A stretch of 64,000 bases of DNA from Escherichia phage LF82-9. The notes beneath the pieces are model-generated. The model ran no database searches, had not been told where the DNA came from, and was given only the letters and a program-made list of their open reading frames with translations. Shown one piece after another: positions 39,420-40,367 of this stretch. The first letter of the stretch is position 1; each line of letters starts with the position of its first letter. The stretch lies in sequence record PV660452. The stretch is one strand, 5' to 3'. Made by a program: the position numbers and the translations under genes.

Positions 39420-39496
39420 TGGTCAGGGTGAAAGGATTCTAACCTTTAACCTGCGGTTTAGAGGACCGCTACTCTATACAATTGAGTTACACCCCG
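39420..39496 (-). tRNA. tRNA-Arg (anticodon UCU)
   Basis: Manual cloverleaf: anticodon stem GCGGT/ACCGC, loop CCUCUAA, T-arm AAAGG-TTAGAAT-CCTTT, encoded CCA. Confidence 0.7.
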
Positions 39497-39622
39497 TAAT
39501 TAGTTCACAGCAATACCTACTCCAACAATCAAGATGTCTTCACACGAAATTAAGAGAAGTGTGATCAGTTCAACCCCTATAATCGCGTCAAGTAGATATT
39601 AATGTGACAGTTGTCACAAGTT

Positions 39623-39697
39623 TGGCGGACATGCATGGATTCGAACCATGGACCAATTGATTAACAGTCAACTGCTCTACCACTGAGCTACACATCC
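39623..39697 (-). tRNA. tRNA-Asn (anticodon GUU)
   Basis: Manual fold: D-arm GCTCAGTGGTAGAGC, anticodon loop CUGUUAA, T-arm CATGG-TTCGAAT-CCATG, encoded CCA. Confidence 0.65.
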
Positions 39698-39701
39698 AAA
39701 T

Positions 39702-39788
39702 TGGTGGGGAGTGGTGGAGTCGAACCACCCGAGTCGCAATGACAATGAATTTACAGTCCACACCGCTACCTCTACGGGATAACTCCCC
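39702..39788 (-). tRNA. tRNA-Tyr (anticodon GUA), long variable arm
   Basis: 87 nt; acceptor GGGGAGT/ACTCCCC, anticodon loop CUGUAAA, T-arm GGTGG-TTCGACT-CCACC. Confidence 0.55.
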
Positions 39789-39794
39789 TTAATT

Positions 39795-39869
39795 TGGTGG
39801 CCCTGGGTGGAATTGAACCACCATCTGGCGATTATGAGTCGCTTGCTTGAACCTTCCAGCTACAGGGCC
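39795..39869 (-). tRNA. tRNA with CAU anticodon (Met or lysidine-modified Ile)
   Basis: Acceptor GGCCCTG/CAGGGCC, anticodon loop CUCAUAA, T-arm GGTGG-TTCAATT-CCACC, CCA encoded. Confidence 0.65.
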
Positions 39870-39870
39870 T

Positions 39871-39946
39871 TGGTGCTGATTAACGGAATCGAACCGCCGA
39901 CCTTCTCATTACAAGTGAGTTGCTCTACCTACTGAGCTAAATCAGC
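39871..39946 (-). tRNA. tRNA-Thr (anticodon UGU)
   Basis: GCTGATTTAGCTCAGTAGGTAGAGC...CUUGUAA...GGCGG-TTCGATT-CCGTT; matches T4 tRNA-Thr architecture. Confidence 0.8.
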
Positions 39947-39951
39947 AAAAC

Positions 39952-40041
39952 TGGCGGAGGCGATAGGATTTGAACCTATGAGTCGCCGGAGCGACTGCCG
40001 GTTTTCAAGACCGGTGCATTAAACCACTCTGCCACGCCTCC
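39952..40041 (-). tRNA. tRNA-Ser (anticodon UGA), long variable arm
   Basis: GGAGGCGTGGCAGAGTGGTTTAATGCACCGGTCTTGAAAACCGG... matches T4 tRNA-Ser. Confidence 0.85.
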
Positions 40042-40043
40042 AG

Positions 40044-40117
40044 TCTCCATACAAGGATTTGAACCTTGGACCTCCTGATCCCAAATCAGGCGCTCTACCA
40101 AACTGAGCTACACGGAG
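40044..40117 (-). tRNA. tRNA-Pro (anticodon UGG); 3-prime CCA not encoded
   Basis: Anticodon stem-loop CCTGA-TTTGGGA-TCAGG; T-arm CAAGG-TTCAAAT-CCTTG. Confidence 0.75.
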
Positions 40118-40127
40118 TAAATTAAAT

Positions 40128-40201
40128 TGGAGCGGATAATGAGAATCGAACTCACATCATCAGATTGGAAGTCTGAGGTAATGCCATTATACGATATCCG
40201 C
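40128..40201 (-). tRNA. tRNA-Gly (anticodon UCC)
   Basis: GCGGATATCGTATAATGG...ACTTCCAAT...GTGAGTTCGATTCTCATTATCCGCTCCA matches T4 tRNA-Gly. Confidence 0.88.
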
Positions 40202-40206
40202 AAATT

Positions 40207-40293
40207 TGGTGCGAGAAGTGGGACTCGAACCCACAAGGAAATCATTCCGCAGCATTTTAAGTGCTGTGCCTTTACCAATTTGACCATTCTCGC
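40207..40293 (-). tRNA. tRNA-Leu (anticodon UAA)
   Basis: GCGAGAATGGTCAAATTGGTAAAGGCACAGCACTTAAAATGCTGCGG...GGGTTCGAGTCCCACTTCTCGCACCA matches T4 tRNA-Leu. Confidence 0.88.
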
Positions 40294-40294
40294 G

Positions 40295-40367
40295 CTGGGA
40301 ATAAAGGACTCGAACCTTTGCATCCTGGAATCAAAATCCAGTGCCTTACCAACTTGGCTAATTCCCA
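40295..40367 (-). tRNA. tRNA-Gln (anticodon UUG); CCA not fully encoded
   Basis: TGGGAATTAGCCAAGTTGGTAAGGC...CTGGA-TTTTGAT-TCCAG...GGTTCGAGTCC resembles T4 tRNA-Gln. Confidence 0.8.

Follow-up and report, generated by a model that had tools for sequence, protein, structure and literature searches.

Positions 39,420 to 40,367 of a 64,000-nucleotide (nt) stretch of Escherichia phage LF82-9 (record PV660452; the whole stretch is referred to here as the window) hold a cluster of ten transfer RNA (tRNA) genes, which we identify, with a probability of roughly 0.85, as the tRNA operon of a Tequatrovirus, or T4-like coliphage, in a T2/T6-type rather than T4-type variant. The ten-gene cluster is real but already known, and nothing is new in the tRNA set itself. 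The new part lies in the spacer between tRNA-Asn and tRNA-Arg, where sequence comparison points to a conserved, phage-restricted and unannotated structured RNA. The gene calls, homologies, cassette limits, codon statistics and RNA covariation given below were computed in this analysis; co-transcription and processing are taken from the T4 literature and anti-Septu activity from that on the T6 tRNA-Tyr, and we infer the lysidine on the CAU-anticodon tRNA, the nuclease activity of the neighboring open reading frame (ORF) ORF184, and the excision and function of the spacer RNA.

Gene content and T2/T6-type layout of the operon

The window DNA matches hundreds of Tequatrovirus genomes, and the closest record, Escherichia phage REP2 (98.3% identical), is annotated with the same ten tRNA genes. 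By synteny with T4, T6 and REP2, the operon lies between the ipI/trna.2-4 genes and e.8, on one strand, with the stable RNA genes rnaD and rnaC at its distal end, and it lacks the T4-type middle content (T4-type Ile, segB and T4-type Arg). Applied to the whole window, ARAGORN returned ten genes for tRNAs, every one of them on the minus strand, and nothing further; these are exactly the ten that an earlier note, made by manual folding of the letters, had placed here in the same order and with the same anticodons; its Tyr and Asn candidates were accepted by the software, which assigned no different anticodon. A complete cloverleaf was drawn for all ten (7-base-pair (bp) acceptor stem, D, anticodon and T arms, 7-nt anticodon loop), and the Rfam tRNA model RF00005 matched nine of them at 59–73 bits against a gathering score of 29. 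In the order of transcription the genes are:

40294–40367, minus strand: tRNA-Gln(UUG), no encoded CCA (ARAGORN; Rfam, 67.4 bits; 65/74 identical to T4)
40207–40293, minus strand: tRNA-Leu(UAA), class II, CCA encoded (ARAGORN, Rfam; 87/87 to T4)
40128–40201, minus strand: tRNA-Gly(UCC), CCA encoded (ARAGORN, Rfam; 73/74 to T4)
40043–40117, minus strand: tRNA-Pro(UGG), no encoded CCA (ARAGORN, Rfam; 74/74 over the annotated T4 length)
39952–40041, minus strand: tRNA-Ser(UGA), class II, CCA encoded (ARAGORN, Rfam; 87/87 to T4 before the CCA)
39871–39946, minus strand: tRNA-Thr(UGU), positions 36–41 UAAUGA (ARAGORN, Rfam; 72/76 to T4)
39795–39869, minus strand: CAU-anticodon tRNA of T2 type, read as tRNA-Ile2 (ARAGORN, Rfam; 47/75 to T4 Ile)
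39702–39788, minus strand: tRNA-Tyr(GUA), class II, short variable arm (ARAGORN; 87/87 to T6 tRNA-Tyr)
39623–39697, minus strand: tRNA-Asn(GUU), positions 36–41 UAAUCA (ARAGORN; Rfam, 72.6 bits; 75/75 to phage SHBML-50-1)
39420–39496, minus strand: tRNA-Arg(UCU), here called Arg' (ARAGORN; Rfam, 60.7 bits; 23/77 to T4/T6 Arg)

The T4 counterparts are classical functional tRNAs. Several genes had been described as matching them nearly base for base, which holds for Leu, Ser, Pro, Gly, Thr and Gln and fails for the CAU tRNA and for Arg, the latter being ruled out as the T4 gene at 23/77. Tyr and Asn are indeed missing from the T4 operon, and Gln and Pro do lack an encoded CCA, both as the earlier note had it, while the other eight genes encode one; this includes the Ser and CAU genes, whose T4 counterparts, Ser and Ile, do not (the T4 tRNA-Ser 3' flank reads ...CCTCCGTAA).

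The T4 operon (eight tRNAs, segB, rnaD and rnaC; NC_000866) shares with the window its position, its neighbors, the upstream promoter region, near-identical Gln to Thr genes, and rnaD and rnaC. In blastn comparisons, window positions 40471–39850, from the promoter region through Thr, are 96% identical to T4 and positions 38876–38524, covering rnaD and rnaC, 97.7% identical, whereas the ~970 bp between 39849 and 38877 have no T4 counterpart. This intervening segment contains most of the CAU tRNA gene, Tyr, Asn, the spacer, Arg' and ORF184, and replaces the Ile-segB-Arg segment of T4, where the order is Gln-Leu-Gly-Pro-Ser-Thr-Ile, then segB, Arg, rnaD and rnaC. T4 has no Tyr, Asn or spacer element, has segB, which the window cassette does not carry, and has its own Ile(CAU) and Arg(UCU) genes. 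The picture of a T4 set with extra genes, from which the earlier note had set out, is hence better drawn as a replacement cassette (~38877–39849), and the CAU tRNA is no addition either: T4 also has a CAU tRNA, its tRNA-Ile, of which the window copy is a different, T2-type counterpart.

Closer parallels are found in T2L and T6. The tRNA regions of T2L, RB1 and RB3 were sequenced by Brok-Volchanskaya et al. 2008 (PMC2330249), who found T2L to be without segB and to carry tRNA-Met(CAU), Tyr, Asn and Arg together with two ORFs. Like the window, T2L (EMBL AJ880101; PMC2330249) opens with a T4-like Gln-Leu-Gly-Pro-Ser block, continues with CAU, Tyr, Asn and Arg and has no segB, and the window sequence agrees exactly with the primers published for the CAU and Tyr genes of T2L. 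Unlike the window, it has an ORF, trna.1, in place of tRNA-Thr, a sequence variant of Asn, an Arg gene of the SHBML type rather than Arg', and downstream the ORF trna.2 rather than ORF184; judging from primer coordinates, its Asn would abut Arg without the spacer element. T6 (Chihara et al. 2026, PMC13096335) has an identical tRNA-Tyr (87/87) in the same place after the CAU tRNA, and differs in its T4-type CAU and Arg genes, in the segB that follows Tyr, and in lacking Pro, Ser and Asn. Among relatives, the variable part of the operon takes at least five layouts:

T4: Ile, segB and Arg, with neither Tyr nor Asn
T6: Tyr followed by segB; Pro, Ser and Asn absent
SHBML-50-1: eleven tRNAs, the spacer being followed by His and by another Arg gene
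teqskov: six tRNAs, the genes from Thr to Asn being deleted
ime09-type Hafnia phage: all ten isotypes of the window, with 3 nt between Asn and Arg

In teqskov, one 72-nt stretch (locus L005, 3544–3616) aligns both to the Ser-end/Thr region of the window and to its Asn region, which suggests that the genes from Thr to Asn were lost by recombination between the similar 5' halves of Thr and Asn; ARAGORN does not call this hybrid Thr/Asn stretch a tRNA.

A probable structured RNA in the Asn-Arg spacer

The gap before tRNA-Arg, which the earlier note had given as 125 nt and treated as empty, is 126 nt long (39497–39622) and contains two features:

39506–39604, minus strand: structured RNA element of ~91–99 nt, with a 12-bp closing stem and three hairpins (covariation, consensus fold)
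39603–39618, minus strand: 6-bp hairpin UGUGAC-AACU-GUCACA just after tRNA-Asn (minimum free energy (MFE) fold and sequence comparison)

RNAalifold applied to 11 distinct sequences gives a consensus of 24 pairs in which a 12-bp stem, pairing 39590–39601 with 39511–39522, closes around three hairpins. Standard pairs occupy 98.9% of the cells of this model, against 33–46% when the partners are slid by one to three columns. Double-sided changes are found at 8 of the 24 pairs (0–2 in the slid controls; at most 1 of 500 shuffles reaches the observed values), a count that comes from about five lineages and therefore stands for a modest number of independent substitution events, roughly ten. The consensus energy is −20.4 kcal/mol in the tRNA sense versus −6.8 kcal/mol in antisense, so a structure on the antisense strand was rejected as weak, and the strand asymmetry, of the kind that G-U pairs produce, speaks for an RNA feature rather than a DNA one. 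A covariance model built on the element finds one copy per genome at 99–122 bits (118.6 bits in the window), which disposes of the idea of a multi-copy element, and it also recovers a divergent homolog in Aeromonas phage PS49 (33.7 bits, E ~6e-6) that folds on its own into a long closing stem and three hairpins (z = −3.65). With PS49 added, in an alignment that was itself fitted to the model, double-sided changes rise to 11 of 24 pairs with 97.6% of cells paired.

The individual MFE folds agree on the closing stem only. An extended single-hairpin interior, as in the MFE fold of the window sequence, was tried and set aside: it pairs 87.3% of cells, and its interior pairs are broken in 3–6 of the 11 sequences. 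The 12-bp closing stem is secure and strongly supported by compensatory changes; the three-hairpin interior is, in our modelling, provisionally the better supported of the two arrangements. Taken as a whole, the conserved RNA structure in the spacer is likely to be real.

The element is widespread among phages. In a blastn search, the 126-nt spacer matched 355 phage records (351 with a coverage of 80% or more), at identities of 95–98% in Tequatrovirus, ~85% in Karamvirus and ~79% in the Klebsiella phages of the genus Jiaodavirus; in W70, a coliphage of the Vequintavirinae, 61% of the spacer is matched at 85.7%. The element spans about five lineages in two subfamilies, and apart from two short "hypothetical protein" coding-sequence calls these records carry no annotation for it. 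Its most conserved stretch, CUGAUCAC-CUUCUCUUAAUUUCG, is nearly invariant. The small hairpin at 39603–39618 is complete in Tequatrovirus copies, and Karamvirus has only its 3' half. The core pattern of the element was further found in 4 IMG/VR contigs and 9 metagenome contigs, most of them T4-like as judged from their length (130–173 kb) or their element sequence and several of them short fragments, and in none of 185,579 bacterial genomes, prophages included.

The spacer has no match among the 4227 models of Rfam 15 at E<=1 over a 4-kb region, and the 141-nt region alone, searched at E<=10, gives only a meaningless 4.6-bit match. It is no relative of rnaC or rnaD, with no blastn similarity and no covariance-model hit in the T4 or T6 loci, and it contains neither a sigma-70 promoter nor a terminator by pattern scan. 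As a small gene it offers only a spurious 57-codon GTG frame overlapping the Tyr and Asn genes. Besides the element itself, the window contains no target complementary to the conserved loop, whose motif recurs once more, as a partial copy, in Karamvirus only. A literature search returned no relevant description of the element. The string GAUCAC, pyrimidine run and UUA has a likeness to the 3' end of 16S ribosomal RNA (GAUCACCUCCUUA), to which no weight is given here.

Several observations concern the surroundings of the element in other phages. In Karamvirus, the spacer between Gln and His is 214 nt long (Enterobacter phage fGh-Ecl01, locus L006, 1389–1506; the same positions in L009), and the ~110 nt upstream of the element, non-coding and GC-rich, contain the partial second copy of the loop motif (UCACUCUUCUUAAAU); this stretch may be another structured RNA. 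In the rV5-like W70 (locus L008, 1420–1750), the Gly and Gln genes flanking the element resemble by eye those of the T4 family, and ARAGORN finds five tRNAs where the record annotates none, a hint that a module of tRNAs plus spacer has passed from one phage subfamily to another.

The function of the spacer RNA beyond processing is much less certain than its structure. Tentatively, we read it as an undescribed phage-restricted RNA, its three hairpins forming a cloverleaf-like junction inside the closing stem, that would be cut from the tRNA precursor and act in its own right, for instance as a tRNA-like decoy or as a regulator of translation or RNA processing. On the same tentative footing it would constitute a third kind of T-even stable RNA beside species 1 and 2, one that has spread between the tRNA arrays of Tevenvirinae (Tequatrovirus, Karamvirus, Jiaodavirus) and Vequintavirinae. 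In the simplest case, RNase P cleavage at the downstream tRNA combined with 3' trimming of the upstream one would release an RNA of ~100–125 nt. The rnaC and rnaD RNAs of T4 offer a precedent, being likewise structured non-tRNA species of ~100–140 nt encoded on the same strand in the tRNA operon and presumably released by the same processing; the spacer element differs from them in sequence and covariance, in its place in the operon, and in a wider occurrence, which takes in genera and a Vequintavirinae phage far outside the close T4 relatives in which rnaC and rnaD were examined.

It is also possible, if rather doubtful, that the element serves processing and nothing else, with a closing stem that brings the 3' and 5' ends of the adjoining tRNAs together or presents a site for a double-strand RNase and an excised RNA that has no function. 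The PS49 homolog, which keeps the closing stem and overall shape while its inner sequences diverge, would fit such a role, as would the position of the element, always directly 5' of tRNA-His in the T4-like genera, and the closed stem (z = −4.46) formed by an unrelated Gln-His spacer in a Certrevirus phage. Yet most tRNA junctions of the same operon measure 1–10 nt and need no such spacer, and in the ime09-type phage Asn and Arg lie 3 nt apart. The inner loop, moreover, is nearly invariant across four lineages, among them the Vequintavirinae phage W70, where the element lies between Gly and Gln with no His, and the element is kept at 96–98% identity in the window lineage, where tRNA-His is missing and the first bases of its gene mark the junction. 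We count the constancy of the inner loop and the persistence of the element in the absence of His (window, W70) for a function of its own, and likewise the short junctions elsewhere in the operon and the ime09-type phages, which have no such element. A signal acting in the DNA, whether to promote transcription of the distal operon, to be cut by a nuclease or to bind a protein as a palindrome, is very improbable: the spacer does contain TTGACG and TTGAAC hexamers and does sit at the cassette junction, but the promoter scan finds no site inside it, TTGACG varies between lineages (W70 has CTGACG, Jiaodavirus TCAACG), the pairing is maintained by compensatory changes, and the fold includes several G-U pairs and is favored on the tRNA-sense strand only.

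The Certrevirus spacer just mentioned belongs to Enterobacter phage vB_ExiM_F1M1E (locus L032, 4425–4500), is 76 nt long, folds very stably (−29.1 kcal/mol) and shows no resemblance in sequence to the element; spacers with a structure of their own may be a feature that recurs ahead of tRNA-His in the tRNA arrays of phages.

Decoding, defense and exchange of the cassette genes

Two of the cassette tRNAs call for comment on their identity. ARAGORN by default labels the CAU-anticodon tRNA as Met, and GenBank deposits vary between tRNA-Met (several records) and tRNA-Ile_CAT (REP2). TilS, the lysidine synthetase, is reported by Ikeuchi and colleagues (2005) to tell tRNA-Ile2 from tRNA-Met by the pairs C4-G69 and C5-G68. 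Both pairs are present in the acceptor stem of the window gene (GGCCCUG/CAGGGCC), which compares with GGCCCCU in E. coli ileX and GGCUACG, with U4-A69 and A5-U68, in elongator metT. Its anticodon arm, AGCGACUCAUAAUCGCC, agrees with that of ileX (GGCGACUCAUAAUCGCU) at 15 of 17 positions and with that of a lambdoid-prophage tRNA-Ile at all 17, where metT reads CAUCACUCAUAAUGAUG. Over the full gene the identities are 58/76 to ileX, 51/77 to metT and 62/76 to the prophage tRNA-Ile, and, among phages, 47/75 to T4 Ile, 50/77 to the T6 CAU tRNA and 75/75 to that of SHBML-50-1. The comparison with ileX and metT rules out an extra tRNA-Met, and the gene is best read from its sequence as an Ile2-type tRNA that would carry lysidine and decode AUA, a codon enriched 4.9-fold in the phage ORFs relative to the E. 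coli sample described below; it would be the counterpart of T4 tRNA-Ile, encoded by a different gene. The best E. coli match is this prophage gene and not chromosomal ileX; it is located on the E. coli M19 chromosome (locus L003, 301–376), downstream of the antiterminator Q gene in a lambdoid late region.

As for Arg', its T-loop is unusual (UUAGAAU, with A where C56 is normal) and its D-loop lacks the usual GG (AAUUGUAUA); the two oddities may represent a compensated change in the elbow contact.

The presence of Tyr and Asn can be considered from the side of codon demand and from that of host defense. When 70 window ORFs that do not overlap (16,455 codons) are set against 7,146 codons from 21 genes of E. 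coli K-12, with ratios that are approximate given the crude ORF call and the small E. coli sample, Asn (6.0% vs. 3.4%, 1.78-fold) and Tyr (4.6% vs. 2.7%, 1.69-fold) come out as the two most enriched amino acids of the phage; for the codons of the other eight tRNAs the enrichment runs from 1.4-fold (CCA) to 15-fold (AGA), with ACA at 4.4-fold. Adaptation to codon demand, which the earlier note had cautiously proposed, thus fits as far as it could be tested. The Gln, Leu, Gly, Pro, Ser, Thr, Ile2 and Arg tRNAs would read the A-ending codons preferred by an AT-rich phage, and Tyr and Asn would supply the two amino acids most over-represented in its proteins.

The same two tRNAs may in addition back up host tRNAs destroyed by defense nucleases, namely Septu and the PtuAB of retron-Eco7 for Tyr, and the AriB nuclease of PARIS for Asn, with Thr as a further target. 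Septu cleaves tRNA-Tyr (PMC13096335), and the T6 tRNA-Tyr, which is identical to the window gene, is detected on northern blots, expressed and active in rescue: its over-expression or SegB-driven tandem amplification restores infection under Septu, a T6 mutant without the tRNA-rich region is more Septu-sensitive, and T4, without a Tyr gene, cannot escape (PMC13096335). PtuAB of retron-Eco7 likewise depletes tRNA-Tyr, and the T5 tRNA-Tyr rescues infection (PMC11555353). AriB cleaves the Lys(UUU) as well as the Thr(UGU) tRNA and, secondarily, tRNA-Asn(GUU), between positions 40 and 41 (U36-A-A-U-C|A), and full rescue from it needs the T5 versions of the Lys, Thr and Asn tRNAs (bioRxiv 2025.02.04.636281). 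T5 belongs to a different phage family and has different tRNA sequences as well as a tRNA-Lys, and it resembles the window in carrying copies of the defense-targeted isoacceptors Tyr(GUA), Asn(GUU) and Thr(UGU); its tRNAs have substitutions around the AriB site, whereas the window Asn keeps UAAUC|A and its Thr, like that of T4, reads UAAUG|A. An AriB-escape variant of Asn is ruled out by the retained motif, and any benefit from this gene would come through dosage.

The suggestion that these genes replace host tRNAs cleaved by anticodon nucleases consequently survives in part. Tyr is identical to the anti-Septu gene of T6 and Asn is an AriB target, but the nuclease that attacks Tyr cuts the variable arm and not the anticodon (PMC13096335). 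The search for nuclease targets in the set, which had been proposed as a check, does turn up Asn and Thr (AriB), with Asn retaining the cleavable motif and no escape signature. Codon supply and defense back-up for Tyr and Asn are both supported and are not mutually exclusive, and the meaning that the earlier note proposed for the cluster agrees for the most part with what has been published.

Several points weigh against these roles, which in LF82-9 are predicted from the genes. Beyond the approximate nature of the codon ratios, His is depleted in the phage proteins (0.74-fold) while tRNA-His is common in relatives, so that demand alone cannot explain these arrays. The tRNA-Tyr scores poorly with general tRNA models, and a copy identical to it at 85 of 87 positions is labelled a pseudogene in one GenBank deposit; of the Rfam models in the tRNA clan, tRNA-Sec gives the best match kept for it, with 30.9 bits where that family requires 47. 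Even so, ARAGORN draws it as a full class-II cloverleaf, with one mismatch and one G-U pair in the D-stem, and the identical T6 gene is expressed and active. At its wild-type dosage, T6 tRNA-Tyr does not fully overcome Septu, which also cuts the phage tRNA (PMC13096335), and by analogy the single Tyr copy of the window may give only partial protection; the SegB-driven amplification route open to T6 may be unavailable to a cassette that carries no segB. Evasion of PARIS is not predicted, since the Asn motif is AriB-cleavable and the cluster has no tRNA-Lys.

If codon and amino-acid supply were the whole explanation, Tyr and Asn would be kept with the other eight for the decoding of an AT-rich phage late in infection, and any anti-defense effect would be incidental. 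The rank of Asn and Tyr among the enriched amino acids, the enriched codons of all the other tRNAs, the lack of nuclease-escape substitutions in Asn and the cutting of T6 tRNA-Tyr by Septu would all agree with this, but we consider it unlikely: Lys, the third most enriched amino acid (1.52-fold), is served by no tRNA-Lys in the cluster, the His discrepancy runs the opposite way, laboratory E. coli supports good growth of T4 and of T2-type phages alike, whose tRNA sets differ, and the identical T6 tRNA-Tyr has a demonstrated defense phenotype.

The cassette may also be viewed from the side of the elements that move it. Its candidate nuclease gene is

38844–39398, minus strand: ORF184 (184 codons), candidate homing endonuclease (MUG113/T5orf172, GIY-YIG superfamily)

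which follows directly on tRNA-Arg, in the slot that in T4 and T6 is taken by the GIY-YIG homing endonuclease gene segB. It matches Pfam families PF13455 (2.6e-9, 38 bits; cutoff 22.3) and PF10544 (3.4e-6, 27.9 bits; cutoff 20), its best phrog is phrog_5032 at 3e-59, with weaker matches to endonuclease and homing-endonuclease phrogs, and by blastn it has no T4 homolog at the DNA level. Only 18 records cover the module of Arg' and ORF184 to at least 80%. Domain, patchy distribution and segB slot together make ORF184 a candidate homing endonuclease as judged from sequence, and its position would fit a nuclease-driven turnover of cassettes. Its last 26 nt, stop codon included, lie inside the rnaD homolog, so that the cassette junction coincides exactly with the T4 boundary between Arg and rnaD. 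We take the middle of the operon to be a recombination hot-spot at which alternative cassettes replace one another, each bringing some Arg(UCU) gene and usually a nuclease-like ORF.

Taken to its extreme, this would make Tyr, Asn, Arg' and the spacer selfish passengers of little benefit to the phage, carried in cassettes moved by homing endonucleases, whether SegB-like or T5orf172 proteins of the ORF184 kind, that target tRNA genes. SegB recognizes a T-arm motif of tRNA genes, its preferred cleavage site is the T2L tRNA-Asn gene, and its homing replaces ~1250 bp of the T2L region in crosses (PMC2330249); segB homologs co-localize with tRNA genes, the limits of the window cassette are sharp, a nuclease-like ORF occupies the segB slot, and relatives differ in at least five layouts. 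Nevertheless, we regard mere hitch-hiking as distinctly unlikely. At a coverage of 80% or more, the Tyr+Asn pair is present in 416 phage records, where it is mostly annotated; hundreds of genomes keep it at an identity of at least 90%, and the phenotype of the T6 tRNA-Tyr is a real one. Above all, an Arg(UCU) gene is present in every cassette variant seen, with the AGA decoder kept despite the change of gene: three Arg(UCU) genes that are not related to one another, those of T4/T6, of SHBML-50-1 and of the window, occupy the same slot (window, 39420–39496; locus L002, 5174–5248; locus L004, 4077–4152). The window gene is identical at 23/77 positions to that of T4/T6 and at 52/77 to that of SHBML-50-1, and the T4 and SHBML-50-1 genes agree at 49 positions. 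Unrelated genes in one slot imply that the decoding function is kept while the gene is exchanged, and hence selection on function.

The operon transcript and what the findings mean

In T4 a middle promoter directly upstream of the cluster drives the entire tRNA transcript, which ends after the species I RNA gene and is a single precursor that is cut into the tRNAs and the stable species 1 and 2 RNAs (PMC2330249). Features of the window that may correspond to these signals and products are:

40437–40463, minus strand: promoter-like stretch, TTTGCTTTA with TATTAT ~12 nt downstream (sequence reading; near-identical at the same T4 position)
38752–38869, minus strand: rnaD homolog, T4 species 2 stable RNA (118/119 identical to T4 rnaD)
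38607–38745, minus strand: rnaC homolog, T4 species 1 stable RNA (137/139 identical to T4 rnaC)
38533–38556, minus strand: terminator-like hairpin and T-run (pattern scan; 10 pairs, 7 of them G-C, then TTTTT)

The stretch at 40437–40463 resembles the T4 middle promoter upstream of tRNA-Gln, from which we infer its activity, and was not flagged by the sigma-70 promoter scan; the hairpin at 38533–38556 is the likely end of the operon. A single transcript would then probably start at the conserved promoter upstream of tRNA-Gln and end at the hairpin after rnaC, to be cut by host enzymes into ten tRNAs, rnaD, rnaC and a putative folded RNA from the Asn-Arg spacer, while Gln and Pro would receive their CCA from the host CCA-adding enzyme.

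Downstream of the operon, the 36-nt sequence of the terminator-like hairpin is duplicated directly (37969–38004 and 38524–38559, 92% identity, 555 nt apart), and a 157-codon ORF (38009–38482) sits between the two copies. T4 lacks this ORF, and its homology to the window jumps from repeat copy to repeat copy; the ORF has the look of a gene cassette that entered when the operon terminator was duplicated.

For the T-even phages, the occurrence of three Arg(UCU) genes in one slot offers clean natural evidence that AGA decoding is selected while the genes themselves would be swapped by nuclease-driven exchange, and the CAU gene is a case in which automatic annotation says tRNA-Met and the features of the molecule point to tRNA-Ile2. 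The role of the stable non-tRNA RNAs of T-even tRNA operons has been a question since the 1970s. The spacer RNA would add to them a concrete and cheaply testable candidate for a new phage noncoding RNA, encoded in coliphages of the therapeutic type as well as in Klebsiella phages.

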